The translations under genes were made by a program, and so were the position numbers. Of a stretch of 64,000 nt of DNA, positions 3,389 to 45,603 are shown piece by piece (position 1 is the stretch's first letter; every line of letters starts with the position of its first letter). The notes under the pieces were generated by a model. It made no database searches. It saw only the letters and a list, made by a program, of their open reading frames with translations, and had not been told where the DNA came from. The stretch comes from an uncultured virus (IMG/VR IMGVR_UViG_3300012953_000023) (Duplodnaviria > Heunggongvirae > Uroviricota > Caudoviricetes), in IMG/VR virus record IMGVR_UViG_3300012953_000023. One strand, written 5' to 3'.

Positions 3389-3460
3389 GCGTATATATCT
3401 ATTAATAATCCTTTTTTCTGATTGGGATAGCCGTATTTTCTTCTTATATAATATTTTAAA

Positions 3461-3721: not shown

Positions 3722-3722
3722 A

Positions 3723-23949: not shown

Positions 23950-24711
23950 TTATTTCTCTTTTTTGGCTAATGCTTTAATAGCCTTAACGTAATGAGGCAT
24001 ACCGTGATCTACAACTCCGTCAAAGAATTTAAATCTTTTCCATGAGTTTAAAATACCATAAAGTGTATCTGCCCATGTTGGCTTTAATGCCTTATCACCA
24101 AATCTATTAAAGTATATCATTTCACCGTGATGTCTAAACCCTAACCATGCTGGTGGGATTCTACATACGATATCATTGTTATTCATAAATCTGTAATGAT
24201 CACAATGAATGTTTTTGATAAATTTAGGTCCACCAACTCTTGGTGATCCAAATGTAAATAATTCTTCTGGCTTATATCTTGTAGAGCTAATAGTTGCCAT
24301 TGCTGCACCTAAGCTATGACCTGTAAAGTATACATCTTTTCTTACTTTTAGTTGGTCATTGTGCTCTAATTCTTTTAAGATATCCATCCATAAGTCGTTT
24401 ACTTCCTCTTGGAATCCACCATGGACTTTACCGCCAGCTACTGCTGCTTGTTTAACTAATTTTAAATCAGCTAAAACATCGTTTAATTTTGAAGGTTCTG
24501 TTCCTCTGAAAGCAAACCATAAATCGTTTCTATCTTTTGCTATTAGAACTTCCGCTCCACCCTTACTAATTAATTTTACTTGTGCAAATCCTAATTTTTT
24601 ACCAGCATTCTCTGCAGGTTTAGGATTCATATACGCAATTGCAGATAGTTTAGCTGCTACTTCAGCTCTTTCCCATACTGTCAACTGTTCTTTCATTCTA
24701 GTTGTCGCCAT
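23950..24711 (-). CDS. Class 3 lipase (alpha/beta hydrolase)
   Basis: AFRGT, VHGGF, TGHSLG, TFGSPRVG, DIV..IP, DH. Confidence 0.9.
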   Translation of the reverse strand: MATTRMKEQLTVWERAEVAAKLSAIAYMNPKPAENAGKKLGFAQVKLISKGGAEVLIAKDRNDLWFAFRGTEPSKLNDVLADLKLVKQAAVAGGKVHGGFQEEVNDLWMDILKELEHNDQLKVRKDVYFTGHSLGAAMATISSTRYKPEELFTFGSPRVGGPKFIKNIHCDHYRFMNNNDIVCRIPPAWLGFRHHGEMIYFNRFGDKALKPTWADTLYGILNSWKRFKFFDGVVDHGMPHYVKAIKALAKKEK

Positions 24712-25198
24712 TTTCTTTCTCCACTTTAATTTCAACTGCTCCAGCATCTTCATCATTAATTGTCACATCCCTATAATAAACTATCACCTCGCCGAGCTGA
24801 TTTATATATCTTTTAATTTCTTGAGTATTATAAGACATAAGCTCATAATCATCAACCGTCATAGCTACAAATACAATATCTCCGCCATGTTTTTTCTTTA
24901 TATCATCGATAAATTTATCGAGATACGTATACCCTTCTGGATATAAATCTTCTCTACCTAATTTACAATTAGATTTTTTAGTTTCTGGATCCTTTAAACA
25001 ATTTTCAATTATTACAGTATCTGAAACTACATACCATTTAGGTTCTTTTAAATCTATTGCTCTAGGCATTACTGGCTGAACAATATCGATTTTAACTGGT
25101 TTTGTAATTATTTCAACTTCTCTAGGAGCCTGTTGAAGTAACGAACAACCACTAATCGTTAAGAGTGCTAATACGCTGACTATCTGCTTCAATTGCAT
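24698..25198 (-). CDS. Outer-membrane lipoprotein, o-spanin-like
   Basis: Lipobox ISGC, Pro-rich, overlaps upstream i-spanin-like gene. Confidence 0.75.
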   Translation of the reverse strand: MQLKQIVSVLALLTISGCSLLQQAPREVEIITKPVKIDIVQPVMPRAIDLKEPKWYVVSDTVIIENCLKDPETKKSNCKLGREDLYPEGYTYLDKFIDDIKKKHGGDIVFVAMTVDDYELMSYNTQEIKRYINQLGEVIVYYRDVTINDEDAGAVEIKVEKENGDN

Positions 25199-25544
25199 CG
25201 AATGCCTCCTTTGTTCTAGTGTTTGCTCTTTTCTCAATCATACCAGGTTTAGCACTTGCTAATTTAGATAAGTTATGGCGTCTAAATATATCCATATACT
25301 CAGCCATCTCTGCCTCGTATGCTTGATTTCTGACTTGTAGCCCTGAAAGGGCTTGAGTTGTTTTTTGAAGATTTCCTTGAATAGCCTCGATTGTGGCTTT
25401 TTGTTCTTGATCTCTTAGATCTTGAGCCAATATTACTTTGGCTTGCTCGTCCAATTTATTTTTCATTGGTACAACAGCTAGGTTATAATATAAAAATCCC
25501 GATACGGCTAAAGAGCCTATAATTCCAATCAATATTTTATTCAT
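25152..25544 (-). CDS. i-spanin-like protein
   Basis: N-terminal TM plus long coiled coil. Confidence 0.75.
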   Translation of the reverse strand: MNKILIGIIGSLAVSGFLYYNLAVVPMKNKLDEQAKVILAQDLRDQEQKATIEAIQGNLQKTTQALSGLQVRNQAYEAEMAEYMDIFRRHNLSKLASAKPGMIEKRANTRTKEAFDAIEADSQRISTLND

Positions 25545-25546
25545 AA

Positions 25547-25786
25547 TTATTCTTTATTTGCTTTTATAGTTTCTTGGTTCCTTTTGGCTTCAAGTTTTCT
25601 GGTTTTTTCTAATCTAGCAGATCTCTTGGCTAACATTCTTTCTACGAATTTTTTACCTTCTTTTGTTCTGCCGTCATAACGTCTTTGTACGTCTTTCTTC
25701 TTTTTTACTGCATCTGCAGGTAGAGAAACACCAGCGCCAGCTACTGAATTAGCTGCAACTTCCCAAATGTCTTTAAATGATTTCAT
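25547..25786 (-). CDS. Small basic protein with capsid-targeting-like N-terminus
   Basis: MKSFKDIWE; DGRTKE motif. Confidence 0.7.
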   Translation of the reverse strand: MKSFKDIWEVAANSVAGAGVSLPADAVKKKKDVQRRYDGRTKEGKKFVERMLAKRSARLEKTRKLEAKRNQETIKANKE

Positions 25787-26370
25787 CTTTTTATCTCTCT
25801 ATTAGTTATATATAATTCTTGGTTAGTTAAAGGATGATTAACCTTATAGATATTCTGATTAAATAATCTATCTATAGGTTCTAGGTATTCTTCAATCTTA
25901 ACCTTAGATTTTTCTAATGCTATAATTTCTCCAGTAACAGGTGAACATATATCTTCTGTTAATGAATATGTTCCAGGTCTTAGTTTATCATCTTCCTGAA
26001 ACCAAGCTGATTCTTCAAGTTCTTCCATTTCATCAGCTGTTAAAATGTCGGACATAACTTTTTGTATTTCTTTTTCAGTTAGTCCAGTATGTTCTTTTAT
26101 TAAAAATAAGGCCGCGGCATAGGTTGCTAATTTTGAGCCTCCGCCAGGAGCCTTTTGTAATAGTCTTTTAATATTAAAAACTAATCTATGGAAAACAGTG
26201 TAAGCAGATTTTTCAGCTGGTGTTGATAAAGTTTTAGCTTTCTTTAATACTTTACCTTTATCATCAATTATCCCATACTGAAAAGCTTTCGTTTTATCCC
26301 AAGACGTTGTTAACATTCTTAGAAAACGAAATGCGTAAAATAAATCTCCTGCTCTTGATACTATTCCCAC
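25783..26370 (-). CDS. Conserved hypothetical T4-like protein (likely GTG start at 26370)
   Basis: AFQYGIIDDKGK, FHRLVFNIKRL; SD AAGGA. Confidence 0.75.
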   Translation of the reverse strand: MGIVSRAGDLFYAFRFLRMLTTSWDKTKAFQYGIIDDKGKVLKKAKTLSTPAEKSAYTVFHRLVFNIKRLLQKAPGGGSKLATYAAALFLIKEHTGLTEKEIQKVMSDILTADEMEELEESAWFQEDDKLRPGTYSLTEDICSPVTGEIIALEKSKVKIEEYLEPIDRLFNQNIYKVNHPLTNQELYITNREIKR

Positions 26371-26741
26371 TATAAATTCCTTAAAACTCCTACAATATAT
26401 GGATCCATTGGTACGTCTAATTTTTCTTTTTCTGGCAAATAATGTAAAAATACTAAGAATGGCTTTATATAATGCCAATGATTCTCATCTATTTTGTACC
26501 AAAGCATCCTATTTGCAGCTTCTATTCCAAAGCAGTTATAAATTACAATTAGATGATTTAATATCAATCTTTCTTGTAAATCATTATGTGCTTCGTATCG
26601 GCTTAAGAGTCTTTTAACATACTTAAACCTATTAACATCTTCCCTAAATTCATTAACATCTATGCACTCAGGATTATTATAATGTTGAGATGCATAAAGC
26701 TTAAAATTCTTTCTATTTAGCTTATCAAATATTTTCATCAT
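26370..26741 (-). CDS. Conserved hypothetical T4-like protein
   Basis: Y.NP.C, RLILNH.I..YN.FG. Confidence 0.78.
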   Translation of the reverse strand: MMKIFDKLNRKNFKLYASQHYNNPECIDVNEFREDVNRFKYVKRLLSRYEAHNDLQERLILNHLIVIYNCFGIEAANRMLWYKIDENHWHYIKPFLVFLHYLPEKEKLDVPMDPYIVGVLRNL

Positions 26742-26746
26742 ATAGT

Positions 26747-26754
26747 TATTTATA
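26747..26754 (-). promoter_or_regulatory. Late promoter TATAAATA
   Basis: Exact consensus 5 nt before ATG. Confidence 0.75.
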
Positions 26755-26756
26755 AA

Positions 26757-27116
26757 CTATTTGTTTATATAAATTTCAACCTTTGACTTATATTTCTTAG
26801 CAATTTGTTGTACTTTTCTATCTTTAGCAAATTTATCTAGTGATGCTTTTTTACCATAAAATTCTAAAGATGCTGGTTGTGTATCGCCTCCATCAAAACT
26901 AGAGATATGCATACCTTTAATTTTACTAATTAATTTATCCATATAATCCATTTCAGCTTGTGTAAATCCAAAATCATCATTAAATTTATTAGATGAATTT
27001 CCTTTTACAACTTCGATATATGCTCTAGCTTCATGACCTCTACGATCTCTATCTTTCCAGTTCTTTAAGTCTTTTACGCCTTCAGTTAGTTTTTGTCTGA
27101 ATTGAAAAAAATTCAT
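26757..27116 (-). CDS. Putative internal virion protein
   Basis: MNFFQFRQKLTE CTS-like leader. Confidence 0.65.
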   Translation of the reverse strand: MNFFQFRQKLTEGVKDLKNWKDRDRRGHEARAYIEVVKGNSSNKFNDDFGFTQAEMDYMDKLISKIKGMHISSFDGGDTQPASLEFYGKKASLDKFAKDRKVQQIAKKYKSKVEIYINK

Positions 27117-27856
27117 TAGTCTGATTCTCCCTCACCAGCATCATAGTTTTTATCGACATAGTTAAAGAATTCTTTTCTTTTCTCTTTGTCTAACTCTTGA
27201 GGTGATTTAACTCCAAATTTCTTTAATGCCTTTTGAAAGAAAGCTTGATATTTCTTTTGCTTATCAGTTTCTTCACTCTTAGGTTTTTCATGAGTGTATC
27301 CAAGCTTTTTCATTCTTTCGTGATCTTCAGGCTTTTCAGCTTTATACTCTTTGCCTGTTTTAGGATCATACATCATATGAGGTTCAAAAGCTTCTTCTAA
27401 ATCTTCTTCCTCTTTGACGTCTTCGAAAAGCTCTGGATATAGATCTTCTAGATCTTCTGAATCCATTCCCATAATATCAGGATCCATCATCATATTAACA
27501 ATAGCCTGTTTATCGCCAGAAATGTCAGCCATACCTCTACCTTTAGCTTTAATTTTTACTTTATGTTTTTTTTGAGCATCAGCAGTAACTTTTCTATCTC
27601 CGACATAATCGACATCAATAGTAGTTTTACCTTTACCTGCTTTTAACTTCTTTTCTTTAATGTTGCTACCATCAGCTTTCATTCCTGATTTTTTAACAAC
27701 ATGCTTCTTTTTAAAATCCTTTTCGCCAGATTGTGGACCATTTTTACCAGATGGTGCTTTTGGTTCCTCAACTTCCTTAACGGATTTTTTACCCTCAAGC
27801 ACATCGCTAACTGATGCAGCAATGCTTTGAGTTTCTTTATCATGCAATTTTGCCAT
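27116..27856 (-). CDS. Charged multi-module protein, putative internal virion polyprotein
   Basis: Short modules separated by (L/V/I)xE acidic linkers. Confidence 0.65.
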   Translation of the reverse strand: MAKLHDKETQSIAASVSDVLEGKKSVKEVEEPKAPSGKNGPQSGEKDFKKKHVVKKSGMKADGSNIKEKKLKAGKGKTTIDVDYVGDRKVTADAQKKHKVKIKAKGRGMADISGDKQAIVNMMMDPDIMGMDSEDLEDLYPELFEDVKEEEDLEEAFEPHMMYDPKTGKEYKAEKPEDHERMKKLGYTHEKPKSEETDKQKKYQAFFQKALKKFGVKSPQELDKEKRKEFFNYVDKNYDAGEGESD

Positions 27857-27870
27857 TTTATTTTCCTCTC

Positions 27871-28170
27871 TTATTGTATGAAAAGCATTCCTGTAATCCC
27901 AGTGGCTGCTGCCGCGATGACTACCCAGAATATTTTATTTATTACACTTACTGTAGAAGCATTAGATCTAACTAATCCTTCTAGCCTATCAACTCTATTT
28001 ATAAGAGTTAAGATTTGTTCTCCTTGTTGTTTACCAAACTCTGTCAGAGTAACAATCTTTTCTTCAGCGCGTGCCAAAGCTATAATAGCTTCAGACATAC
28101 GATCTATTTTTTCTTCTATACGGTCAAGCCTTTGGGCCTGTTCAGCTCTTTGTTCCGCTGCTGTACTCAT
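27871..28170 (-). CDS. Coiled-coil protein with C-terminal TM
   Basis: RLDRIEEKIDR; hydrophobic C-terminus. Confidence 0.75.
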   Translation of the reverse strand: MSTAAEQRAEQAQRLDRIEEKIDRMSEAIIALARAEEKIVTLTEFGKQQGEQILTLINRVDRLEGLVRSNASTVSVINKIFWVVIAAAATGITGMLFIQ

Positions 28171-28432
28171 ACTTATATATCCTACATCTAAGTGGCGTTA
28201 CGCCTTTTATTAATCTATGGTACTCTCCTTTTTTAATGTCAAATACCATACCCTTTTTTAGTAGCCAAGGTAAACAATTTTGTAATTGGAATTGCCATCC
28301 TTCGCCATCTAAAATTTCTACTTCCCTGTCTTCCATATCACGGTGCCAAACATATTCCTCGTCTGGATTTTCTGGTTTGAATTCTCTTATAGATCCTTCT
28401 TCCCAGTATGGTTTACCAAAAGTAATTTCCAC
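28142..28432 (-). CDS. Cupin-like small protein
   Basis: WHRD.EDR and EYHRLIKG. Confidence 0.65.
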   Translation of the reverse strand: MEITFGKPYWEEGSIREFKPENPDEEYVWHRDMEDREVEILDGEGWQFQLQNCLPWLLKKGMVFDIKKGEYHRLIKGVTPLRCRIYKYEYSSGTKS

Positions 28433-28781
28433 CGCCTTTTAATCCTAAATCTTTTGCGTACTTGGGTAATCTACAAGACCAATAACCTGGAGAGAGTTTA
28501 TCTGTTTTAGTATCGCAGTTGTGTCGTGATGCAAAATTTCTAGCTGCGTCGCGATCATTAATTTTAGAAGTAAGACCACCCTTTTCGTCTCCAAAGTTTA
28601 TTTTCTTTATATTACCAGTTTTTGGGTTTTTAACATATACAACATATTTTTTAGGACCTGAACTTCTACTTGGCTTATTAAGCTCTGGATCAGGACCTTC
28701 AATCATTGGTTGCTCTAAAGGAACATATTTTCCTTCGTATAAACCAAATCTGTCTTGTGTATGTTCTAAAAAACTATTCAT
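28413..28781 (-). CDS. Conserved hypothetical viral protein
   Basis: KKYVVYV...NFGD, F.SRHNC, GYWSC. Confidence 0.72.
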   Translation of the reverse strand: MNSFLEHTQDRFGLYEGKYVPLEQPMIEGPDPELNKPSRSSGPKKYVVYVKNPKTGNIKKINFGDEKGGLTSKINDRDAARNFASRHNCDTKTDKLSPGYWSCRLPKYAKDLGLKGGGNYFW

Positions 28782-29221
28782 ATTTTTTTAAATGTTCTCA
28801 CTATTTTACTTAAAATCATTTTTATAGCTGTAAAATACGCCCAACCATAACCATAAAATATATGGAATGTATGATTTTTTTCTATTGCAGATTTAGGGCC
28901 AAATTTCTTTGTCCAATTATCTACATATTCTCCTTTATATCTTAATACTGCGTGTGATGTTTTCCATTTACTAGGTCCTACACAACAAATACCAGCTTGG
29001 TGTGTTATTAACATCCACCACATTTTAATATGGCTTTCACCACATAATCGATATAATATAGAAAGTGAATAATCCTCGCAATCGCCTACGTATTTACCTT
29101 CTGCATCTGCAGAATATATTATTTTCCATGCATCGGCCATGCCGTATTGCTCTTTATCTTTTCTGTATTTCCATTTGCTATTAAATGAAGATACAATTTT
29201 ATTTCTAGCCTTTTTATCCAT
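28778..29221 (-). CDS. Transglutaminase-like cysteine protease
   Basis: GDCEDY, HAVL, DN catalytic triad pattern. Confidence 0.7.
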   Translation of the reverse strand: MDKKARNKIVSSFNSKWKYRKDKEQYGMADAWKIIYSADAEGKYVGDCEDYSLSILYRLCGESHIKMWWMLITHQAGICCVGPSKWKTSHAVLRYKGEYVDNWTKKFGPKSAIEKNHTFHIFYGYGWAYFTAIKMILSKIVRTFKKI

Positions 29222-29659
29222 TTATCCGCCAAATTCGTGGCCAGCAACTCTTTTCATTTGTTTTACAAACTCTTTATAGTCTGGCTTATTTTTATAAAGT
29301 TTAATTGTAACCTCAGGTCTATCTTTTCCTTTGATTCTCCAATTATATCCTTTATCCTTGTGTTCAGGTTTAGAAGTTGCAACAACTCTTCTTTTAAATC
29401 CAGCTTCCCAAGATTCACCTTTATTCTTACCTTCAGTGGCAACTAATTTCCATCCTTGCCTTTTCATCTTATCTGCTGTCTTACCATCAACTTTTCTAGT
29501 ATATCTACCTTTTTTGACAGTATATTTTTCTGCGCCTTCTTCTACTTCTTCTGGTACACAGTTTGGAACTTCTTTACCATTCTTAGTTTTAGTTCCTACT
29601 TGCTTATATCCTGGCCAGCATGGACCTTTGTTTTCATAAAATTCTTTAAAATCTATCAT
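29222..29659 (-). CDS. Putative internal virion protein
   Basis: MIDFKEFYE leader; CWPGY...VPNCVP module. Confidence 0.7.
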   Translation of the reverse strand: MIDFKEFYENKGPCWPGYKQVGTKTKNGKEVPNCVPEEVEEGAEKYTVKKGRYTRKVDGKTADKMKRQGWKLVATEGKNKGESWEAGFKRRVVATSKPEHKDKGYNWRIKGKDRPEVTIKLYKNKPDYKEFVKQMKRVAGHEFGG

Positions 29660-29904
29660 TATTTTCGTACTCCTTTTTCTAAATCATATAGAAAAGCTTT
29701 GTTTCTAGCTTGGCCCTTTGTGGTAACTTTTAATCCTACTAATCTACCAACGTTATTTACCAGTTCGGTGTTACCCTTTCTTAAATCTTTTTCTAATTTA
29801 GATTGAACATCTTTAAGCACAACTTTAATAATATTTGGTATATCCATTACTAATGGTGCTCTTTCGTCAACATTGTGTTTTCTAAATTCTTGGAAAGATT
29901 TCAT
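29659..29904 (-). CDS. Putative internal virion protein
   Basis: MKSFQEFRKHNVDE leader. Confidence 0.7.
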   Translation of the reverse strand: MKSFQEFRKHNVDERAPLVMDIPNIIKVVLKDVQSKLEKDLRKGNTELVNNVGRLVGLKVTTKGQARNKAFLYDLEKGVRK

Positions 29905-30377
29905 TTTAGTCTATCTATTTCCTTTTTGATTTTTTTATATTCTGGGCCGCCGTGCTTAACGTCCATTAATTTATTATATAGATCTACTACTTTTTCCATA
30001 TCTTTAGCTTTAACTTCATTAACTTCTTCATCAAACATTCCAGAATCTTTCATCATTTTTAAAGCATCTTTTTTTGCTTTTTCTGCATTTGATTTTGAAA
30101 TCTTTTCAACTGCCTTTTTAATCATAGCTAAACGCTTCTTTTTATCTGCATCTGATAAAGCTTCAAAAGTTAATTCTTCTTTTTGAACATCTTCGTTAGC
30201 TAACCTTAAAGCATCTTTAACCATAGGATCATTTGCTAATCCCTTTTTCATATTTTCGATTTTTTTATGAGCACCTGTCATATTTCCACCCATATCTAAT
30301 GCTATTTTCACAGCAGCAGATACTAAAGATGATGGAAATTTACCTCTATACTTTTCTCTTAATTCTTTAAATTTCAT
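29901..30377 (-). CDS. Putative internal virion protein
   Basis: MKFKELRE leader; internal xxE linkers. Confidence 0.7.
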   Translation of the reverse strand: MKFKELREKYRGKFPSSLVSAAVKIALDMGGNMTGAHKKIENMKKGLANDPMVKDALRLANEDVQKEELTFEALSDADKKKRLAMIKKAVEKISKSNAEKAKKDALKMMKDSGMFDEEVNEVKAKDMEKVVDLYNKLMDVKHGGPEYKKIKKEIDRLK

Positions 30378-30382
30378 TTTTT

Positions 30383-31708
30383 TTATCCTTTTACCTTAGC
30401 GGCTAAATCTTTGTCAGCTTTACCCCATGTACCGCTTGACTTAGTTACAAATGAATTAACTCTTGCTAATCCCCATTGAATTGGTGTAGTGCCTGGTCTG
30501 TGTCCAGTTCTCCATGCAGCTACTCCTCTATCAAAAACTTTCTTTAATATACCATAAGGCATTCCACTTTTATCAGCTTTCTTTTGAATAGCCTTTTTAG
30601 CTCCGCCTTTATCCTCTACTACATAATCTTCAAATGTAAAACTTTCACCGTACATTTGCTTATATTTTTTAGTATGTTTAGATGTTTTAGTTTTAGCTGT
30701 CGCATCACCAGGAGCTGGTTTATAAGCTGCTGGGTTGTCGTCATCCATTTTTGATTGTTTCTTAAATTGTGCTGCTCTTTTATCTTGTGTAGATTTTGCT
30801 AAACCTTTATGATATTTCTTAGGTCTCTTCTTTTTATCTTCGTTTTGGCCAGGTGTATCTTTTTTATATTTTTTAGTTAATTCATCAGTTCCATCACAAC
30901 CTGCCATTGTTTCTACAGATTCTAACCAAACTCTTTTTCTAAAATCACCAAAATTAACTAATAGATAGTTACTACCTTTATGTTGAATTGTTCCAACCTC
31001 TCCAGATTCTTTTAATTTAACTGCTTCGCCTTCGTTAAATAGATTTCCTTCAATATATTCTTCCCTTGTTTCTGAAAGCTTTGGTAATTCAACATGTGGC
31101 CTTACTGATTCTTTCTTTAATCCCATTCCTTTACGAACAGCATAATATAATTCAGTTCCATCTCCTGGAACACCAGATGAAAATGCTCTCAAGTCTCCAG
31201 CAGCTGCAGCTGTTCTCATTTTAGATGAAGACATTCCTGATATTCCTTCAGCATCTGGATCTCTTTCTCCAGCTGAAACAACTTTAATTGCACCTTCAAA
31301 TTGATAAAAGCCATGTTTTGCCTTTACTCCATTATACTTATTTAATAGAATATCAAATTCTTTGATCCTATCAGATCCTGCAACCATTGTTACTTTTGTA
31401 AAACCTTGATCATACAATTTAGTAGCAATATCCATAACATGACGAACATCGCTGTCAGCCATTATATTTCTTGCATGTTTTGGGAATATTTTACGTAGGA
31501 ATTTTATTTTATCTTTAAATTGTAATGGATTCTTTTTAGCGTCTTGTGATTTAGATGCATAAATTCTATACGCACCGCCACGAGCTATTTTCTTAAGAGT
31601 AGTAAATAACTTTTCGTGCCCTGTCGTCGGAGGGTTAAACCTGCCAAAAACAAATGTTATTTCTTTGGTTTCCTCGACCAAATAGTCGGAGAATCTTTTA
31701 ATTTCCAT
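30383..31708 (-). CDS. HxGH nucleotidyltransferase (cytidylyl/NMNAT-like) with extra C-terminal modules
   Basis: FGRFNPPTTGH, GSDR, MSSSKMR; C-terminal RG.AAW..GHRPG..WG.ARVNSF domain. Confidence 0.8.
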   Translation of the reverse strand: MEIKRFSDYLVEETKEITFVFGRFNPPTTGHEKLFTTLKKIARGGAYRIYASKSQDAKKNPLQFKDKIKFLRKIFPKHARNIMADSDVRHVMDIATKLYDQGFTKVTMVAGSDRIKEFDILLNKYNGVKAKHGFYQFEGAIKVVSAGERDPDAEGISGMSSSKMRTAAAAGDLRAFSSGVPGDGTELYYAVRKGMGLKKESVRPHVELPKLSETREEYIEGNLFNEGEAVKLKESGEVGTIQHKGSNYLLVNFGDFRKRVWLESVETMAGCDGTDELTKKYKKDTPGQNEDKKKRPKKYHKGLAKSTQDKRAAQFKKQSKMDDDNPAAYKPAPGDATAKTKTSKHTKKYKQMYGESFTFEDYVVEDKGGAKKAIQKKADKSGMPYGILKKVFDRGVAAWRTGHRPGTTPIQWGLARVNSFVTKSSGTWGKADKDLAAKVKG

Positions 31709-31723
31709 TATCCTCGGTTCCCA

Positions 31724-32959
31724 TTAGTTAGGATTATCCCAACCTTTTATAATATCTTTGCTGAAATTATTAGTAGAAAATTCTAATCGGTCTACTAACT
31801 TAACAGCACCACCTTCCATACGATCTATAGCAACAAAACCTTCAGGGTTGGTTACTTTAAATCCGGATGTTGTTTTTACAAACGTCCCAATCTTTGATAG
31901 TTTGTTTAGTTTATTTATAAGAATTAATTTACTATCAATCACTAAATTCTGTAAATCGAATATCATTTGTAAGTTTTTTAAATTACTTTTATTGAAAAAT
32001 TTTAATAGTTCGTCTCTTTTTGATATTTGTATATCTTTGCCAGCTTTTGATGATCTTTTATCTATTTCTTTTGCATATCTGTCATTAACAAACATGATTA
32101 ATCCAGTAGCATGTTTTTTGGTATTTTTAATTCTTTGTCCCTGCCTTACCATTCTATTATTGTAAATATTAACAATAAGGTTTAATTCTTTATTAGACTC
32201 TAATTCTGCTAATGTATTACTCTGTATAGTTCTAAATATTTTACCAGCTGATGATAACTTCTGTGATAATAATAAAGTTTCTTTAGCGGTAAGTGTAGCC
32301 GTTCCAGATAAGTCTGGTAATGTAGCATCAACCATCCATACATCTTTTGTTTTTCTTAATTTTGGTACTATTTCTTTGCCAAACTCTGCTGTCATTGTTT
32401 CAAACGTTGCTCCAGAATATGTTGTATGCCAGACAACTCCAATCTTAGCTGATCCAATCTCTTTAGCAAGAGGATTATCAATAGGTACTGCATAAGCAAT
32501 AGTGTTAGGATGAAACACCAAATGAGTAATTCCATTTATTTTTTCCTTCTTTAAATCTGAGTTATCAAACATAAAATCACCTTGTATAACATCTTTAATG
32601 CCAAGATCTTTTAAATTATCAAACGCTAACTTTAACTTTTTGTTAAGGTCTCCTGAGGTATCTGCATCAATATCTGCATGATTTTTATACACTTTAGGGT
32701 TTTTTGCAAAGATTCCTTTTTTGGCTACAAAGAACTGGCCATCACTAGGATCTAATCCTGCAAATACAGCGGGGGCCCCGTCCCACTTTACGGTAATGTC
32801 CACAGGTGCTTTTGCATTACCAGATAACATATCCCTCAAAGATCTAAGCGCTAGGATAGCTTGGCGGGCCCCCTTGACTCCTCCATCAAGGATTAAATCC
32901 TCTATGTGTGTCATGTGAGTGTTTTTAGATTCGGATAAGTATGTTGTTAATTTTTTCAT
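31724..32959 (-). CDS. ATP-dependent ligase-fold nucleotidyltransferase (DUF6267-like)
   Basis: Motif I KWDG, QGDFMF, motif IV EGFV, motif V VKLV. Confidence 0.7.
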   Translation of the reverse strand: MKKLTTYLSESKNTHMTHIEDLILDGGVKGARQAILALRSLRDMLSGNAKAPVDITVKWDGAPAVFAGLDPSDGQFFVAKKGIFAKNPKVYKNHADIDADTSGDLNKKLKLAFDNLKDLGIKDVIQGDFMFDNSDLKKEKINGITHLVFHPNTIAYAVPIDNPLAKEIGSAKIGVVWHTTYSGATFETMTAEFGKEIVPKLRKTKDVWMVDATLPDLSGTATLTAKETLLLSQKLSSAGKIFRTIQSNTLAELESNKELNLIVNIYNNRMVRQGQRIKNTKKHATGLIMFVNDRYAKEIDKRSSKAGKDIQISKRDELLKFFNKSNLKNLQMIFDLQNLVIDSKLILINKLNKLSKIGTFVKTTSGFKVTNPEGFVAIDRMEGGAVKLVDRLEFSTNNFSKDIIKGWDNPN

Positions 32960-34347
32960 TATTTTCCTGCCTTTACATATACGGCTGATTCACTACCTTT
33001 AGAACCAGCATAGTTAACGAAATGTGTTACTAAAGCATTAGCTGTTTGTCCACCAGCTTTATCGATATAATAAGCAACATATGTACAAGCTAATTTAGCT
33101 GAAATCCAAGTCCAATCTTTTTTAGAAAGTTCTTCTTTAAATTCGTCATATGAAGTATTCTTATAGAAATGATTAAATAAAGTATAGTAAGCTTTAGTTT
33201 CTCTAACCTTGCCAGCTTCTATACTTTTAGCCATTTTTTTAATACCAGATGCATGGTCTGGTAATTTTTTCCTAGTTTCTCTTTGAACATAATCCTGCAT
33301 TGGTCCCCATGAAATACCACCGCCTCTGGCATTCTTACCTTTAATCTCAGCTTTTATAGTTCCGCCTGGTGTTCCATCCTTTAATATCATTGAACCATCG
33401 TCATATACAAGCTCTGCAGATTTAGATGACCAATAGGTAGCTGAGCCTCTGTCAGCTTCTAGTTTAAATCCGTTATATTTGTGCATATCAACATCGGGTG
33501 GAACTTGATTATTAAATTCTTTTATTGGTGGTGGGAATTTTATTTCTGGACCTTTAAGAGATATTCCAACTAATCTACGATTGTTAAAATGTTCTAATAA
33601 AGATTTATTATATGAGGTAATATTTGATGTTTTTAGTTCTTTTAATGAGAATGAATTATCTATTGCCCATATATCTCCTGGATTCCATTTATCATCTTTA
33701 AGTGGTTTGAATCCAGTGTTTTTAAATGCTATATCTTTACCAGCATAAATGTCCGCCATTCCTCTGGTTCCTCGATATAGTTTCATTCCTTTTTTTACAT
33801 AACCTTTTTGTATTAATAGTTTACTAATATTGTATGATGATGTAAACCATGGACCTTCTAGTTTAAGCATATTATCTAAACTTTCATCAACATCAATTCC
33901 TTTGGCCGCGCCTTTTAAAATATCAAGTGTAAAAAAGCTTTCATCATGATTATAACCATGCAATAACATTGCTGATAACATTAAACAATTATGGGATTCG
34001 GTTAATTTAGTATTTGCTGTTCCGCCACCAGCACCACCACCTGCTCCGCCAAATACTTTTGCTTTACCTATTTGAGTGTTTTTATAGGTTTTGCCATCAG
34101 TTCCATTTAAGAAGAATCCAACCTTATAGCCAGCTTTGACATATGCATCAATTATTTTAATAGCTTCTTCAGGGTCGGCAACTTTAAATGAACCTCCTTT
34201 TGCAAGTTCTATAGGTTTACCATCTTGAATTAATCTTTTTAATATTTCTGTTCTAATAACACCAGTATTGCCATTAGGCTTTTCCCATTCGGGATTTCCC
34301 ATAGGAACTAGTTTTTCATAAATTTCATGAGATTTAAATTTAAGCAT
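32959..34347 (-). CDS. Putative PD-(D/E)xK restriction-like nuclease
   Basis: TES, KWNPGDIW, GISLK. Confidence 0.6.
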   Translation of the reverse strand: MLKFKSHEIYEKLVPMGNPEWEKPNGNTGVIRTEILKRLIQDGKPIELAKGGSFKVADPEEAIKIIDAYVKAGYKVGFFLNGTDGKTYKNTQIGKAKVFGGAGGGAGGGTANTKLTESHNCLMLSAMLLHGYNHDESFFTLDILKGAAKGIDVDESLDNMLKLEGPWFTSSYNISKLLIQKGYVKKGMKLYRGTRGMADIYAGKDIAFKNTGFKPLKDDKWNPGDIWAIDNSFSLKELKTSNITSYNKSLLEHFNNRRLVGISLKGPEIKFPPPIKEFNNQVPPDVDMHKYNGFKLEADRGSATYWSSKSAELVYDDGSMILKDGTPGGTIKAEIKGKNARGGGISWGPMQDYVQRETRKKLPDHASGIKKMAKSIEAGKVRETKAYYTLFNHFYKNTSYDEFKEELSKKDWTWISAKLACTYVAYYIDKAGGQTANALVTHFVNYAGSKGSESAVYVKAGK

Positions 34348-34366
34348 ATGCCCTCCTCGTTATATC

Positions 34367-34374
34367 TATTTATA
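34367..34374 (-). promoter_or_regulatory. Late promoter TATAAATA
   Basis: Exact consensus, intergenic, followed by SD GAGGAGG. Confidence 0.78.
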
Positions 34375-40496: not shown

Positions 40497-40525
40497 ATTA
40501 TACCATACTTTAGTCGTTTTGTACA
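40497..40525 (-). promoter_or_regulatory. Early-type promoter TGTACA-N17-TATAAT
   Basis: Recurrent motif. Confidence 0.75.
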
Positions 40526-41391
40526 TGGTTAAATTGAATATTTTGCTCTTTTTCTCTATCATCTCTTTCATATTGAGATCTATAGTTATTATTTATCTCA
40601 ATAGCTTTATTTAAAAGAGTTAATTCTTTAGAATACTTTGAAAAAGCTAATGTATCTTTAGGGAAACATGCTCCTCCGTATCCTTGCTTTCCATCAAATC
40701 CTGGAACTTTAGTATGTGATGGTGCTATCCTTTCATCAGCTCCAACTGCTTTAATAATTTTATTAAAGTTTACATTACCATGTGATCTACACACATCGTA
40801 TAGCTGATTAAAGAAAGTAACCTTTGTAGCTAGAAATGAGTTAATAGTGTATTTTACAAATGATGCCTCTTCCAAAGTCATATGATACGATGGACACCAA
40901 TTGCATAAACTATATTTATCATAATAGCTTTCTAGCAATTCCGTTTTATCTTCATTGCCACCAAAGATATGAAACTCTGGATTTACAAATTGTTCACAAG
41001 CTGATTTTTCTGTCAAAAATTCTGGATTATATACTACATTACACATTCCAGTATACATTTCTATAACGCTTGGTGTTACTGTAGATTTTATAACAATTAA
41101 AGTTTCTTTATTACAGTTGGATAAAATGTTCATTACTGAATCCAATATGCTAGTATCAATGTCTCCATCATCACCCATTGGTGTAGGAACACATACAAAT
41201 ATTAAATCAGCATTAGAATCAACTAAACTTAAAGTATCTTCATCTGTATGTCCATATTTTGGATCTATAATTTTTTTGTGAACTTTAGTATTTGAAAATC
41301 CATAATCAACTGCTTTTCCTACAAAACCATGTCCTATGATTCCTAATCTTAACCTTCCTTCTAGCTTTCTTGATAATTCTGATATTCTCAT
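40510..41391 (-). CDS. UDP-glucose/GDP-mannose 6-dehydrogenase family
   Basis: GHGFVG, CVPTP, KST, NPEFL, GYGGACFPKD. Confidence 0.9.
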   Translation of the reverse strand: MRISELSRKLEGRLRLGIIGHGFVGKAVDYGFSNTKVHKKIIDPKYGHTDEDTLSLVDSNADLIFVCVPTPMGDDGDIDTSILDSVMNILSNCNKETLIVIKSTVTPSVIEMYTGMCNVVYNPEFLTEKSACEQFVNPEFHIFGGNEDKTELLESYYDKYSLCNWCPSYHMTLEEASFVKYTINSFLATKVTFFNQLYDVCRSHGNVNFNKIIKAVGADERIAPSHTKVPGFDGKQGYGGACFPKDTLAFSKYSKELTLLNKAIEINNNYRSQYERDDREKEQNIQFNHVQND

Positions 41392-42164
41392 TCTGCTTCT
41401 CCATACCAATCCCAACGGCCATGGTCTTCTTCTAATATATGAAACTGTGGATTCCAACCATAGAGTTTTAATACCGTTGGATCAGCACATGTGTGTTCTC
41501 TTTCACCAGTTACTTCTTTAATTGGTAAGTTGTTTTCTGGCCAGATTTTATTTGCCATATCTGCTACATTTACTGGCTTTCCATTACCTACATCAATTGC
41601 TTTAAATTTATTTGACATATCCCAAAAGTTTTCAATACAAATATGTATTGCTGAGCAAACATCTGCAACATGTGTCCAATCTCTAGTGTGATTAGTTAAA
41701 TAAGTTAGTGATGGATCTTTTCTTAATAAAGCGTCATATAACATATCTTTTCTACTATCAGGTCCATAAACAGTATGGAATCTTAATCCAATAGAATTTA
41801 CATCTTTTGCAATATGTTCCATAGCCCATTTAGTAGTTGCGTATGGTGATTGCCACCATTCATATACTGATGACGAAGATGCATATATGATTGGAACATC
41901 TTGTTCTTTACAAGAATCAAAAATGTATTGTGATGCAATAACATTTGTATGCCAATATTCTTCTGGTTCTTCGTGTGATTTACGTACTCCAGCTAATGCT
42001 GCTAAATGTATAACCATATCAAACGGAGATACATCTATATTTTTTGCGTCTCTAATATCACCACTATATTCTGTGATATCATATTTTTGGTGATAGGTAT
42101 CTAGGAAATGATTTGCTATAAAGCCTCTTCTATGTCCTTGGGTACCTGTTAATAAAATTTTCAT
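41388..42164 (-). CDS. NAD-dependent nucleotide-sugar epimerase/dehydratase
   Basis: HLAA.AGVR, ASSSSVY, YATTK, RFHTVYGP, RDWTHV. Confidence 0.9.
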   Translation of the reverse strand: MKILLTGTQGHRRGFIANHFLDTYHQKYDITEYSGDIRDAKNIDVSPFDMVIHLAALAGVRKSHEEPEEYWHTNVIASQYIFDSCKEQDVPIIYASSSSVYEWWQSPYATTKWAMEHIAKDVNSIGLRFHTVYGPDSRKDMLYDALLRKDPSLTYLTNHTRDWTHVADVCSAIHICIENFWDMSNKFKAIDVGNGKPVNVADMANKIWPENNLPIKEVTGEREHTCADPTVLKLYGWNPQFHILEEDHGRWDWYGEAE

Positions 42165-43375
42165 AAAAATGCCTCCAAACTATTTTCATCTCTATCATAA
42201 TCATATTTTCTAGCTAAATTATTTTGGAATAAGTATTTAGTTTCAATTAAATCTCTTCTGTTTTCTAACACTGCTTTTACTTCAGTTGCCATATCTTTAG
42301 CTGTTGCAAATGGAACATTTTGACATATATGATTATAGTTTTTCATAGGATCAATAACTTCTAAATCCCTTGGTAATCCCATAATAGCTTTAGCTTCATC
42401 AATATTTAGATATCTATCTTCAGTTGGATGAGCTACTACTTTAGGTAAATGAACTACAAATGCTCCAATATAATTAACTGGAATAATTGTACCTCTCAAC
42501 ATAATGTTTCCACCTGCTTCTAATTTTGCATGTTTACGTCTCGCCTTTGCAGCTTCTCTTTCAAACTCTGGATATTCATCCATCCATTCTGCAATTGTTC
42601 CATGCTTAATTCCCATTTTCATTAACCTAGATTCAATGGTTACAGATTTTTCTTCGTCCTTTACTGATTGTGAATAATCATAATGTGACATTCCGCCTTT
42701 TACAACCTCTAACATATATTTGTAATAAGGATCATCTTTACTTGGTGTCTTTTTATTTAATACTTCAGTTTGAAAGTTACTTTTTACTCCAAGGATTAAC
42801 TCTTGAATTGTTGGTCTTTCTTTATCAAAATAATTTAGTACAGGAATTCTATTTCCAAAATGTTCTTTATCCCAGAAAAAGAAGAATGTTCTTTTTCGAT
42901 ATTGAGGACTTCCGTGATTTAAACTCTTTGTTAAATAGATCGAGAAGTTGTACCCATTTTCTTGGCCAAGTTGATACAACTTCTCTCTCATGAATGCACC
43001 TATCTTTCCGGCTAGACCTGGTGCATTCTCTCCCCACAGTACTTTTGGTCTAACCTCTTGTAAAACAAATTCAGATGATTTTTCCATCCATTGATTATTT
43101 TGGTTTTCTTCTCCATGCGAATTATGATAAGTACTCAAACCAGCACATGGACATACAGATGACACAACATCAACTTGTTCTAATTTAATGTTAGGTTCTT
43201 CATCTAAAACATGATATGGAATACTTAGCCCTTGTTCATAATAATGCTTAATTAAGTGTTCTTCATTACCCATAAATCCAGAATATGTCATTAGATATTC
43301 TGGTTTTTTTCCATAAGCCTCATCTGAAGCTAATATTTCACCACCGATTAGTGGTACTATTCCTGCATGTTTCAT
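42161..43375 (-). CDS. Divergent C5-cytosine methyltransferase-like protein
   Basis: PCAGLS (IV), ENAPG (VI), PQYRKR (VIII), R.L...E...IMGLP (IX); motif I degenerate. Confidence 0.75.
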   Translation of the reverse strand: MKHAGIVPLIGGEILASDEAYGKKPEYLMTYSGFMGNEEHLIKHYYEQGLSIPYHVLDEEPNIKLEQVDVVSSVCPCAGLSTYHNSHGEENQNNQWMEKSSEFVLQEVRPKVLWGENAPGLAGKIGAFMREKLYQLGQENGYNFSIYLTKSLNHGSPQYRKRTFFFFWDKEHFGNRIPVLNYFDKERPTIQELILGVKSNFQTEVLNKKTPSKDDPYYKYMLEVVKGGMSHYDYSQSVKDEEKSVTIESRLMKMGIKHGTIAEWMDEYPEFEREAAKARRKHAKLEAGGNIMLRGTIIPVNYIGAFVVHLPKVVAHPTEDRYLNIDEAKAIMGLPRDLEVIDPMKNYNHICQNVPFATAKDMATEVKAVLENRRDLIETKYLFQNNLARKYDYDRDENSLEAFL

Positions 43376-44205
43376 CCTAAAAAATCCTCTAATGATGATG
43401 CGTTCTTTGCTTTAATTGCATCCTTATAAGCTTTTGACCATTGAATGAAGCAAGTAACTCGTTCTTCTCCTTTCCATGGTCCATTTGCTAATACTTTAGT
43501 TTTTAACGCTACGTAATCTGGGTACATTTCAGCTAATTGTCTGTGTACTTGATTACTTAATTCAACTGTTCTATATTCTGAACAACCGCCTTTTGCATTA
43601 GTGGCCGATATTGAAACTCTGTATCTCGTTGTAATTCTATTAGCAAATCCTTGTGTTAACAACTGTAGATTGGCATGAAAATCTTGAGAAGTTTGTAACT
43701 TATCCCATACAATATTTCTTGGTAAATTTTTTGAATCAAAGTAACAATTAGTCATAATCCTTACATTGTTTTGATGTGGCCAATATTTTAAATCTGGTAC
43801 TACCCATGATGTTGAAAATCCTCCATGATAAATTTGTTCTTCGTCACACCACTTGTTAAATGTATCAAATGCATCGTCATATTCATCTTCAGTCATATCA
43901 CGAGTTTCCCATTTAGTATCTAGATGCTCTGGTGCTGGCCCTTTGTACTTAAAATATTCCATATCATCATCAAGGACCATATGTCTCGTACCATAAAACT
44001 CATCCCATATCCATTGTCTTGTAGGTGATAACCCTTTAATAGATGCTGGTAATTCGAGAACTTTGTCTCCATATATATCACGCATTTCGTCAACCTCATG
44101 TGGTTGCACAGTAAACTTTACTTTTTGTTTCCATTTATCAGGTAGATTTTCATAAGTTTTTTGTTTATGAGTTCTTCCTAATGTTGGTATAATCAAATGT
44201 TCCAT
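43372..44205 (-). CDS. DNA glycosyltransferase-like (GT-A; TAGT/hmC-glucosyltransferase-like)
   Basis: IPTLGR, VLDDD, QDF..NLQLL..G, GGC. Confidence 0.7.
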   Translation of the reverse strand: MEHLIIPTLGRTHKQKTYENLPDKWKQKVKFTVQPHEVDEMRDIYGDKVLELPASIKGLSPTRQWIWDEFYGTRHMVLDDDMEYFKYKGPAPEHLDTKWETRDMTEDEYDDAFDTFNKWCDEEQIYHGGFSTSWVVPDLKYWPHQNNVRIMTNCYFDSKNLPRNIVWDKLQTSQDFHANLQLLTQGFANRITTRYRVSISATNAKGGCSEYRTVELSNQVHRQLAEMYPDYVALKTKVLANGPWKGEERVTCFIQWSKAYKDAIKAKNASSLEDFLG

Positions 44206-44206
44206 T

Positions 44207-44503
44207 TTATACTCCTGCTAGTGTTCTGGCTAAATTATTAATTAAAAACATTAATCCTACGCCATTTAATAAAATTAATGCTCTATCTTTCCATATTACT
44301 GATACAAGCAGCCATAGGAATATTCCCATTACTGAAAGATATAAATCATATACTTGCATACCTTCAACACCTCTTAATGACATAGCAACTAAAACGAATG
44401 CTGATGCAATCCATTTTAGATACCAGTCTAATGTGTATTTTGGTGTTGCTGATTTAAAAATTCTTTTACTGTTCTTAATTTCCTTTGGATCAAATTCTGT
44501 CAT
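44207..44503 (-). CDS. Small 3-TM membrane protein
   Basis: WYLKW, WKDRALILLN. Confidence 0.72.
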   Translation of the reverse strand: MTEFDPKEIKNSKRIFKSATPKYTLDWYLKWIASAFVLVAMSLRGVEGMQVYDLYLSVMGIFLWLLVSVIWKDRALILLNGVGLMFLINNLARTLAGV

Positions 44504-44927
44504 ATTCTATACCTGCTTCTCTAAAAAGTTCAATTGTATCTGCTCCGCTATCTGCCCATTTTTTTGGTACTGCATCTGCTTTATAAACGACCCTCTTAAC
44601 TCCTACTTGAATTAATCCTTTTGCACATTCGCTACAAACCGGAAGCCCTGAAATATATATAGTAGCTCCTTGCAATGATACTCCATTGTATGTAGCATTG
44701 TAAATACAATTCATTTCTGCATGAACTACGTATTTGTATTTTTTATCTCTATTATAATATCTTTCATCTGTATCAATAATTCCACGAGGAAATCCATTAT
44801 AACCTTGTGCTAGTACTTGGCCCTTTTCTCCGATTGCAACTGCACCAATTTTTGTGCTTGGATCTTTTGACCAAGTAGATACTTCCTGTGCTAAGGAAAT
44901 ATATCTTTTATCCCATTTACTTGACAA
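44490..44927 (-). CDS. cd: dCMP deaminase (likely TTG start)
   Basis: SKDPST.IGA, GYNG, HAEMN, PVCSEC. Confidence 0.92.
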   Translation of the reverse strand: MSSKWDKRYISLAQEVSTWSKDPSTKIGAVAIGEKGQVLAQGYNGFPRGIIDTDERYYNRDKKYKYVVHAEMNCIYNATYNGVSLQGATIYISGLPVCSECAKGLIQVGVKRVVYKADAVPKKWADSGADTIELFREAGIEYDRI

Positions 44928-45603
44928 GATTAAAGTGCCTCTCATACACATGTAGGTTTTGTACTTGCCAATGAATATCACCATGGTTTAGGACAACACC
45001 TTCAAAATATAAATCATCTCTTAGCATATCCATCACATGTTTTTGCCAAGCATAATCATTACGATAACCAAAGATTACGTCATTAGATCGCATTTGTACG
45101 ACTGCATGTAATGCATTATCTCTTATGTAATAGGTTACTGCATTAGTGCAAATAAAGTCGTTTTTACCTTGTTCTTTATATTCAATCCAAATACTTGGTC
45201 TTTGATAAATCATTGATGCTCTACGAGAATCTGGATTTTTTAATAATTCTTTAAGTACTTTATCGTATTGTTTGTGATACTTTTTAGACCAAATTAAATG
45301 ACCATAGTTTGAATTAATTTCACCATGAATATTTGCAGTGTATTGCCAGGCTTGTGGTGGCTCTTTATCACCTTCAGGATAGATATCAGTTATATTAGTT
45401 GATTGACTGGCATACCAGCGTAATTCATCTTCGATATATTCTTGATTAGGTTTACCAAAGATAGCTGGGCCATCTGCATAAAAGTTAGCACCAATCATTT
45501 CAATTGTTTTAGCACCTGTTTTATCAATAGTAAATCTTTCATTACGAAGTTCATTAATAAAATAGCTTTTTACTTGATCAATTTCTAATGCAATACTAGT
45601 CAT
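44917..45603 (-). CDS. 42: dCMP hydroxymethylase-like (T4 gp42 family)
   Basis: NSNYG, DFICTN, MRSNDVIFGYRNDYAWQ (Asp at the dCMP-specificity position), NLHVYERHF. Confidence 0.85.
   Translation of the reverse strand: MTSIALEIDQVKSYFINELRNERFTIDKTGAKTIEMIGANFYADGPAIFGKPNQEYIEDELRWYASQSTNITDIYPEGDKEPPQAWQYTANIHGEINSNYGHLIWSKKYHKQYDKVLKELLKNPDSRRASMIYQRPSIWIEYKEQGKNDFICTNAVTYYIRDNALHAVVQMRSNDVIFGYRNDYAWQKHVMDMLRDDLYFEGVVLNHGDIHWQVQNLHVYERHFNLVK

Follow-up and report, generated by a model that had tools for sequence, protein, structure and literature searches.

A putative capsid-targeted gene trio with an RNA-ligase-like protein and a TxGH-type nucleotidyltransferase in a marine T4-like phage

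In this work, we analyzed a 64,000-nucleotide stretch of DNA from an uncultured virus of the class Caudoviricetes (IMG/VR record IMGVR_UViG_3300012953_000023), hereafter referred to as the window. This window is the replication region of a marine T4-like myovirus of the pelagimyophage type, a group that has SAR11 bacteria as hosts. Our focus was on three adjacent open reading frames (ORFs), designated here as genes A (32959-34347; 462 aa), B (31724-32959; 411 aa), and C (30383-31708; 441 aa). Unless stated otherwise, the coordinates given below are positions in the window, and all window features described lie on its minus strand. We found that B is predicted to have the fold of ATP-dependent RNA ligases, that C has the hallmarks of a divergent TxGH/SxxKxR nucleotidyltransferase, that relatives of B and C are fused to each other in other phages, and that all three proteins begin with a short leader similar to those that direct T4 proteins into the phage head. 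By analogy with T4, the three proteins are probably made late in infection, loaded into the prohead by these leaders, trimmed, and ejected with the DNA, with B and C acting as a nucleic-acid-joining unit.

Genes A, B, and C are three adjacent ORFs on the minus strand, located exactly where the initial annotation of this DNA had placed them, and every motif that had been quoted for them was found in the translations. The motif residues of the three proteins are invariant among diverse homologs, which indicates that these motifs are not chance strings. Gene B corresponds to a full-length DUF6267 protein (Pfam, E = 3e-102) and belongs to phrog_455. DUF6267 is widespread, with 2582 representatives at the 50% identity level (E ≤ 0.001). 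Four motifs of covalent nucleotidyltransferases are present in B, namely, KWDG (motif I; residues 58-61), QGDF (residues 126-129), EGFV (motif IV; residues 373-376), and VKL (motif V; residues 386-388). Motif I is encoded at 32777-32788 and contains K58, which is the predicted AMP-accepting lysine, whereas motifs IV and V are encoded together at 31796-31843. Among the 46 sequences of the B family that were aligned (35-62% identity to B), the invariant residues are H18, K58, D60, G61, G127, D128, E373, G374, and K387.

The strongest indication of what B may do came from its AlphaFold2 model, which has a predicted local distance difference test score (pLDDT) of 91.7 and a predicted template modeling score (pTM) of 0.88. 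In this model, motifs IV and V lie on the strands formed by residues 374-379 and 384-388, and a helical insertion (residues 225-352; 31904-32287), delimited from the secondary structure of the model, stands between the first nucleotidyltransferase part and motif IV. When the model was compared with 48,161 chains using VIA-align, the six best matches were all RNA ligases (given here with score, number of aligned residues, and deviation): Naegleria NgrRnl (5cot; 8.1, 186, 3.9 Å), Trl1 (6n0t; 7.8, 196, 4.5 Å, and 9r3w; 7.7, 207, 4.9 Å), T4 Rnl2 (2hvq; 7.5, 181, 4.0 Å, and 1s68; 7.3, 182, 4.3 Å), and Trypanosoma REL1 (1xdn; 7.4, 193, 4.3 Å). Approximately 20 of the 50 matches shown by this comparison are RNA or DNA ligases, and the others match the helical insertion only. 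The ligase matches are mutually consistent and span the whole nonhelical part of B, and K58-x-D60-G61, E373-G374, and K387 are located where motifs I, IV, and V are expected. A Foldseek search with the same model returned no match at E ≤ 0.001, and the weak matches were dominated by DNA and RNA ligases. The proposal in the initial annotation that B has a ligase-type fold thus stands with regard to structure, whereas membership in a ligase family was not recovered from sequence profiles. In comparisons of B with the sequences in the PDB, no ligase was found by either the single sequence or a profile of the 46 sequences, and the Pfam families RNA_ligase, DNA_ligase_A_M, and RNA_lig_T4_1 had no match in B, which was assigned to DUF6267 only.

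The C-terminal end of B is informative with regard to the type of ligase. The protein ends 24 residues past K387, and the model shows one short helix in this segment, such that an OB domain (which carries motif VI) is not possible. Lacking an OB domain, B has the architecture of RNA ligases rather than that of DNA ligases or capping enzymes. On the basis of the model, B is a putative covalent nucleotidyltransferase of RNA-ligase architecture that consists of a nucleotidyltransferase domain and a helical insert without an OB domain. Most likely, its reaction proceeds through a Lys58-AMP intermediate and leads to the sealing or joining of the ends of polynucleotides. The features that B shares with the ATP-dependent RNA ligases (NgrRnl, T4 Rnl2, REL1, the ligase domain of fungal Trl1, and T4 Rnl1, 9do4) are the lysine of the KxDG motif, the EG of motif IV, a lysine in motif V, and the absence of an OB domain. 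However, B has no detectable sequence-profile relation to these enzymes and differs from them by a helical domain of ~130 residues before motif IV, a single lysine in motif V, invariant H15 and H18 in the N-terminal part, and a capsid leader. The helical insertion is absent or shorter in many cyanophage homologs of B. For example, the DUF6267 profile matches only positions 1-206 and 312-376 in the S-SCSM1 homolog, and the tblastn coverage was partial in many records. These short versions of DUF6267 (S-SCSM1 ORF257, at 4407-5291 of its own record, and those of many cyanophages) lack most of the helical insert, have no leader, and are located away from the C gene.

Gene C encodes a protein composed of a leader, a nucleotidyltransferase domain (residues ~17-200; 31109-31660), a small middle module (residues 215-269; 30902-31066), and a DUF5824 domain (residues 296-434; 30407-30823). 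The assignment of C to the HxGH class of nucleotidyltransferases in the initial annotation was borne out by these comparisons. Two PHROG families named "cytidyltransferase" match C, one of which is phrog_3041 on the nucleotidyltransferase domain (E = 1e-98) and the other has an E value of 1e-66. The motifs GRFNPP (residues 22-27), GH (residues 30-31), and SSKMR (residues 161-165) form the TxGH and SxxKxR signatures, and G22, R23, P26, P27, T28, G30, H31, S160, K163, and R165 are invariant among 32 sequences of the C family. The Pfam family CTP_transf_like (PF01467) scores just below its cut-off on C itself (20.2 bits vs. 21) and above it on fused relatives such as P0245 (30.3 bits) and P0389 (30.8 bits). 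For the other two parts, the middle module matches phrog_4808 (E = 7e-4) and is a separate ORF in phage Syn1 (Syn1_162), and the C-terminal domain matches PF19141 (E = 4e-18; 66.2 bits vs. a cut-off of 25).

Regarding the substrate of C, the equivalog models for nicotinamide mononucleotide adenylyltransferase (NMNAT) scored 17.4 bits vs. a cut-off of 341 (TIGR01526, nadR_NMN_Atrans) and 14.8 vs. 112 (TIGR00482), and NMNAT chains were found weakly when a profile of C was compared with the PDB (E = 0.34 and 1.3). Judged from its sequence, C is a divergent TxGH/SxxKxR nucleotidyltransferase that is nearest to the NMNAT and phosphopantetheine adenylyltransferase (PPAT) types. An NMN- or phosphopantetheine-like phosphate acceptor and the 5' end of a polynucleotide are candidate substrates. 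C shares the TxGH and SxxKxR motifs with the NMN/NaMN adenylyltransferases and PPAT, but falls far below the curated NMNAT cut-offs and, unlike these relatives, carries the middle module and DUF5824 as additional parts and has a coupled ligase-like partner in B. Among the cyanophage virion proteins described as NMNAT-like or cytidylyltransferases (in S-SCSM1, S-SZBM1, S-CREM2, and S-CBWM1), ORF91 of S-SCSM1 is 42% identical to C over 266 aa. The window also has a second, canonical cytidylyltransferase-like gene (14425-14865; 146 aa; PF01467, E = 8e-16) that is separate from C.

The start codon of B and the stop codon of A share one base, the gap between B and C is 15 bases, and the gap between C and the next ORF is five bases. 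To describe the conservation of the gene order, we used the 80 best IMG/VR loci with a relative of A (46-93% identity). In 61 of these, the sequence continues for 2600 bp or more downstream of A, and all 61 have B next on the same strand (one of them, L086, by inspection), with a start within 200 bp of A in 48. C follows in 60; the single miss (L074) is a contig that ends inside B. The trio is co-conserved among close relatives. At larger distances, C was found in all five of the complete related genomes and DUF6267 in all four of those searched, whereas a profile of A found a homolog in two of five, each adjoining B or C. In S-SCSM1, B is far from A and C.

Gene fusions provide a further link between B and C. 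Among the B-family representatives with at least 500 residues, 10 of 26 carry a C-like domain as detected by BLASTP, located either before or after B, and Pfam CTP_transf_like was found in eight of the 23 long representatives scanned. No A-B or A-C fusion was found among the 26 long B-family proteins. Other genes of the block take part in fusions as well, as seen in three metagenome proteins: P0242 has a relative of the window ORF 28413-28781 joined to B; P0245 has B joined to C, DUF5824, and a relative of the window ORF 29222-29659; and P0243 has a P-loop kinase (AAA_33/Zeta_toxin) joined to the N-terminus of B. Outside this window, the cargo genes of the block are thus found joined to one another in different combinations. 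Because other phages have B-C fusions of either order, C is expected to work in the same pathway as B. Taken with their presence in related genomes, the fusions indicate that the B-C pair is the conserved unit and that A is a clade-restricted partner.

The capsid-targeting system of T4, in which short N-terminal leaders bring proteins into the phage head, is textbook knowledge. All three proteins of the trio begin with leaders of this kind, as the initial annotation had proposed. The leader of A comprises residues 1-11 (34315-34347) and ends in I-Y-E, that of B comprises residues 1-10 (MKKLTTYLSE; 32930-32959), and that of C comprises residues 1-12 (MEIKRFSDYLVE; 31673-31708). As in IPII and IPIII of T4, each leader ends in a predicted site for the prohead protease, (L/I)-x-E. 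The leaders of A and B are disordered in the models, with pLDDT values below 50 for residues 1-10 of A and 1-11 of B. We described these leaders by the pattern [FYL]..[FYH].{0,2}[LIVF].E, with a start no later than residue 7. This pattern is present in 27 of 38 members of the A family, 21 of 46 of the B family, and 22 of 31 of the C family, compared with frequencies at internal positions of 0.00025, 0.00071, and 0, respectively. The N-termini of these three unrelated families look alike even among divergent members. In T4 (NC_000866), the internal proteins IPII and IPIII begin with MKTYQEFIAE, which matches the pattern, and IPI begins with MKTFKEF. The leader of B is in the exact T4 register, with hydrophobic or aromatic residues at positions 4 and 7, Leu at position 8, and Glu at position 10. 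According to the accessible part of one source on this system (PMC9026906), the first 10 residues of IPIII suffice for targeting to the head, residues 4 and 7 are the main determinants of targeting and residues 8 and 10 those of processing, packaging by this route has been achieved for foreign enzymes, nucleases among them, and T4 Alt is an example of an enzyme that is a capsid-targeted cargo.

The comparison with the T4 head proteins IPI, IPII, IPIII, and Alt reveals both similarities and differences. Similar to those proteins, the trio has short leaders that agree at the key positions, appears to be late genes, and comes from a lineage in which relatives encode a prohead protease of the same family. 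Unlike those proteins, the cargo here would consist of three large proteins of other families (the ligase-like B, the TxGH nucleotidyltransferase C, and A). Downstream of C, six additional ORFs (25547-30377; starts at 25786, 27116, 28781, 29659, 29904, and 30377) have look-alike leaders when inspected by eye and fail the strict pattern. These leaders resemble those of T4 IPI/IPIII, and most of the six products are small basic proteins without an assigned family.

The region upstream of A contains a motif similar to T4-type late promoters (TATAAATA; 34367-34374), which ends 19 nt upstream of the start codon, and a ribosome-binding site that can be read from the sequence (GAGGAGG; 34352-34358). 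In 43 of 45 distinct upstream regions collected from IMG/VR, TATAAATA is located no more than 90 nt before the A homolog, and the flanking sequences diverge. In the window as a whole, this motif is not enriched (14 found vs. 15.9 expected); all 14 copies are on the coding (minus) strand, and several are a few bases before ORF starts. The conservation of TATAAATA provides good comparative support for a putative T4-type late promoter.

Published virion proteomes of cyanophages contain homologs of C. Mass spectrometry of S-SCSM1 virions identified 45 proteins, including ORF91, which was called an NMNAT (PMC9602691, in the part accessible). The available parts of the corresponding papers report 30 virion proteins of S-SZBM1, including a 362-aa cytidylyltransferase, and 52 virion proteins of S-CREM2, including the cytidylyltransferase ORF154; S-CBWM1 is listed in the same paper as the latter. 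The association of this NMNAT-like/cytidylyltransferase family with virions is thus already in print, as far as the accessible text of these reports goes (PMC9602691, PMC9146016, PMC10665884). Both of the virion-detected C homologs for which the N-termini were read (S-SCSM1 ORF91 and S-SZBM1 gp136) begin with T4-like leaders; the gene numbers of S-SZBM1 were mapped by lengths and order. For gene A, the homolog in S-SCSM1 (ORF90) has the GenBank label "virion protein." Together with the leaders and the conserved late-promoter motif, these records make the virion delivery suggested in the initial annotation plausible.

Gene A belongs to phrog_1462 (E = 4e-28), which is a family without an assigned function, and matched no family in Pfam or NCBIfam. 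Its AlphaFold2 model (pLDDT 86.5; pTM 0.63) is locally confident and less certain in domain packing. In the model, the leader is followed by a small beta domain at the N-terminal side; next come a linker rich in glycine (residues 99-110) and an alpha/beta core, and the C-terminal part combines beta structure with helices. Among the 38 sequences of the A family, 53 columns are invariant, including E117, H119, DDKWNPGD (D218-D225), SLK (S263-L264-K265), RGGG, NYAGS, and two glycine-rich loops. The initial annotation labeled A as PD-(D/E)xK-like on account of NPGDIW (residues 222-227; 33667-33684), most of which falls within the invariant stretch D218-D225, and GISLK (residues 261-265; 33553-33567), in which the last three residues are invariant.

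A was also compared with PD-(D/E)xK nucleases. Three candidate active-site residues (E117, D225, and K265) are invariant, and the second acidic position is occupied by S263. The nearest named language-model clusters of the A core are the restriction enzymes HpaII, HaeIII, and MspI, with scores of 0.83-0.87 that fall below the lead threshold of 0.9 and are kept as a lead only. Similar to this group of enzymes, A has an invariant helix glutamate, P-G-D, and S-x-K. The long spacing between its motifs (40 residues) is one that we take to resemble the S-x-K variant active sites of Cfr10I and NgoMIV. Unlike the HpaII/MspI/HaeIII group, A has a helix (residues 243-255) between the strand with GISLK and the strand that follows D225, and no profile or structural match connects it with these enzymes. 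With the A model, Foldseek found nothing significant in the PDB (best E = 2.1), and VIA-align likewise found no significant match to a nuclease. The 13 BFVD matches at E ≤ 0.001 are all uncharacterized phage proteins, and comparisons with PDB sequences, using either the single protein or a profile, gave noise only; for the trio as a whole, the hits of these comparisons were TPR, eS8, MogR, and S-layer proteins. No PD-(D/E)xK family of Pfam was found in A, its 38 aligned relatives, or the core alone, even at E values up to 1-10. By the same approach, a true Pfam PD-(D/E)XK nuclease gene (PDDEXK_1, E = 6e-8) was detected next to PhoH (15064-15741), which indicates that real members of this superfamily in this phage are visible by profile, unlike gene A. 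The PD-(D/E)xK-like label is an interpretation, the nuclease reading draws on a sequence motif and weak language-model leads, and we consider it unlikely, although worth retaining as a lead, that A is a nuclease.

Based on these results, the following course of events may be proposed for the trio. A, B, and C would open a late transcription unit of a T4-like pelagimyophage as its first three genes. As in the case of T4 IPII, IPIII, and Alt, the leader of 10-12 residues would take each protein into the scaffolding core of the prohead, where a T4-type prohead protease would cut off the leader after an (L/I/V)-x-E site. The mature enzyme would remain in the head and be ejected into the cell together with the DNA. 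There, B and C would probably act as a nucleic-acid-joining unit, with C in the pathway of B and with A as a lineage-restricted partner of this pair. Packaging, cleavage, and ejection, as well as the ligase chemistry of B and the link between A and the function of B-C, are inferred.

Several observations weigh against this proposal. For B, motif V has one lysine (K387-L-V389) and the second lysine is absent; either R391, which is nearly invariant, or K344, which is invariant, might substitute for it. Approximately half of the sampled B-family sequences have no leader. Of the 111 ORFs in the window, three fit the strict leader pattern, and these are A, B, and C (0.59 expected, P ~0.02), and this hit rate is circular because the pattern was written after these three proteins had been seen. 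No prohead protease (gp21, Peptidase_S77) was found among the ORFs scanned in the 64-kb window; the T4-type prohead protease (PF03420) is present in three of four related records, and the miss is a 39-kb fragment. A was undetectable in three of the five complete related genomes, which have nonhomologous genes in its place; the genes at this position in C48C1, S-SZBM1, and HTVC008M were considered as A homologs and rejected, with hhalign probabilities of 0.2-0.9%. The virion data come from homologs in other phages only, and no B homolog was reported among the virion proteins listed in the accessible parts of the papers on relatives. This includes the B homologs of S-SZBM1 and S-SCSM1, although these are copies without a leader. 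Since the two virion-detected C homologs that were read have leaders and the leaderless B homologs are not listed, the presence of a leader goes with virion detection in these few cases. The authors of one proteome also cautioned, in the part of the text accessible, that abundant nonstructural proteins can contaminate CsCl preparations (PMC9602691).

With regard to what the trio does as a whole, two other explanations were weighed against the delivery of a B-C joining unit. The initial annotation favored an injected counter-defense kit, in which B and C repair tRNA or other RNA or restore NAD+ and nucleotides, and A is a PD-(D/E)xK nuclease that attacks unmodified host DNA and spares the modified phage DNA. 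Such a function would fit with the AAA_33/Zeta-toxin-type P-loop kinase found N-terminal to B in P0243, the weak NMNAT-like signals in C, the invariant E117, D225, and S-x-K265 in A, the proximity of the A core to the HpaII, HaeIII, and MspI clusters (0.83-0.87, below 0.9), and the cytosine-modification genes of the window (C5-methylase-like, TET-associated glycosyltransferase, and dCMP deaminase). However, no end-healing kinase or phosphatase was found in the block, and classic tRNA repair is not supported because both are needed. Rescue of NAD requires a demonstrated NMNAT and a partner enzyme and is likewise not supported, given that C scored 17.4 bits vs. 341 for the NadR NMNAT equivalog and that no Nampt-type partner was found among the window ORFs scanned. 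The helix that separates the two supposed catalytic strands of A is a further difficulty, and restriction-modification is encoded by one of more than 100 SAR11 genomes according to the accessible text of PMC7029224, which weakens a defense-driven rationale in these hosts. In sum, a counter-defense kit appears improbable. We find it similarly hard to favor a role in cytoplasmic replication, in which B would supply the ligase for strand sealing that is otherwise missing from Kyanoviridae-type phages (for Okazaki fragments or nicks), C a metabolic helper, and the leaders and virion detections incidental. The location of the trio within the replication module is as expected from this role, as are the lack of a DNA_ligase_A_M or RNA_ligase Pfam match in all four related complete genomes, each of which has DUF6267, and the existence of leaderless cyanophage copies of B that are not reported in virions in the accessible sources. 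On the other hand, B lacks the OB domain of DNA ligases, a conserved late-promoter motif is found upstream of A, three unrelated families share a conserved and disordered T4-type leader, and homologs of C were repeatedly found in virion proteomes, as far as these are accessible.

A separate question is whether A is an enzyme at all. Instead, it may reside inside the head or take part in ejection, serve a structural or DNA-associated function similar to that of the T4 internal proteins, and merely be co-transcribed with B and C. We regard this as a possibility to be taken seriously, although less likely than not. No enzyme family or fold was detected for A, its S-SCSM1 homolog is labeled as a virion protein, its slot is taken by unrelated genes in C48C1, S-SZBM1, and HTVC008M, as would be expected for a variable cargo slot, and fusions of A with B or C were not seen among the 26 long B-family proteins. 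Against this, the 53 invariant columns with clustered polar and charged residues and two glycine-rich loops resemble an active site or a ligand-binding site more closely than what would be expected of a packing protein. A far more specific possibility, which we consider a long shot, is that A belongs to the restriction-type endonucleases as a divergent member whose active site is an S-x-K variant; it would be loaded into the head, injected, and cut host sites with unmodified cytosine. In that case, the DNA of the phage would be immune through the methylase-like and glycosyltransferase genes of the window, and B and C would keep the phage genome or transcripts intact in the period before phage gene expression.

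In the set of papers searched, none was found to name DUF6267, PF19782, DUF5824, or PF19141, and a search on capsid targeting in cyanophages returned a single review on T4. No paper was found to describe a ligase-type fold for DUF6267, a tie between this family and C at the level of fusions, or a T4-type leader on these large enzymes. Among marine viruses, the T4-like phages that infect SAR11 and picocyanobacteria belong to the most abundant. If the delivery of A, B, and C with the virion as outlined above is correct, with enzymes injected ready-made, the first minutes of infection in these slow-growing and streamlined hosts would rely on proteins brought in by the virion and not on newly made ones. 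The capsid-targeting mechanism of T4, known for small internal proteins and Alt, would also be extended to a family of large enzymes. The predicted ligase fold of DUF6267 and its fusion-level tie to a virion "cytidylyltransferase" turn three obscure annotations into a testable enzyme pair.

For the genomic context of the trio, the window has a G+C content of ~33%, and almost every gene in it is encoded on the minus strand. Pfam searches identified gp46/47-like proteins, gp45, gp44/62, RegA, gp43, UvsX, DnaB-type gp41, ThyX, ribonucleotide reductase (RNR), RNase H, and PhoH. The DNA is similar to that of the pelagimyophage HTVC008M, the Melnitz phages, phage C48C1, and cyanomyoviruses. The trio lies within this replication module, flanked upstream by gp43, UvsX, and gp41 and downstream by RNase H and RNR.

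Several other genes in the window were noted. A probable gene set for DNA cytosine hypermodification was found at 40510-45684, which encodes a UDP-glucose dehydrogenase-like protein, an NAD-dependent epimerase, a C5-cytosine methylase-like protein (404 aa), a TET-associated glycosyltransferase (TAGT), DUF6552, dCMP deaminase, and a thymidylate-synthase-like protein. No TET/JBP dioxygenase was found among the window ORFs scanned. A weak tRNA_lig_CPD match in ORF 27116-27856 (23.3 bits) was rejected as a sign of RNA repair, as it corresponds to an acidic, low-complexity stretch. A gene for a SegE-type GIY-YIG homing endonuclease (19155-19577) is located between the RNase H and RNR genes, and a class-3 lipase/esterase gene adjoins two Rz-like spanin candidates (23950-25544). 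At 1556-7625, CsgG- and CsgF-like curli secretion genes and a gene for a FecR-domain protein are present beside a gene that encodes a 610-aa protein with a CHASE2 sensor fused to an adenylate/guanylate cyclase domain; this cyclase gene finds no mention in the accessible part of PMC7029224. A curli-type CsgG/CsgF cluster is typical of pelagimyophages, according to the accessible part of PMC7029224.

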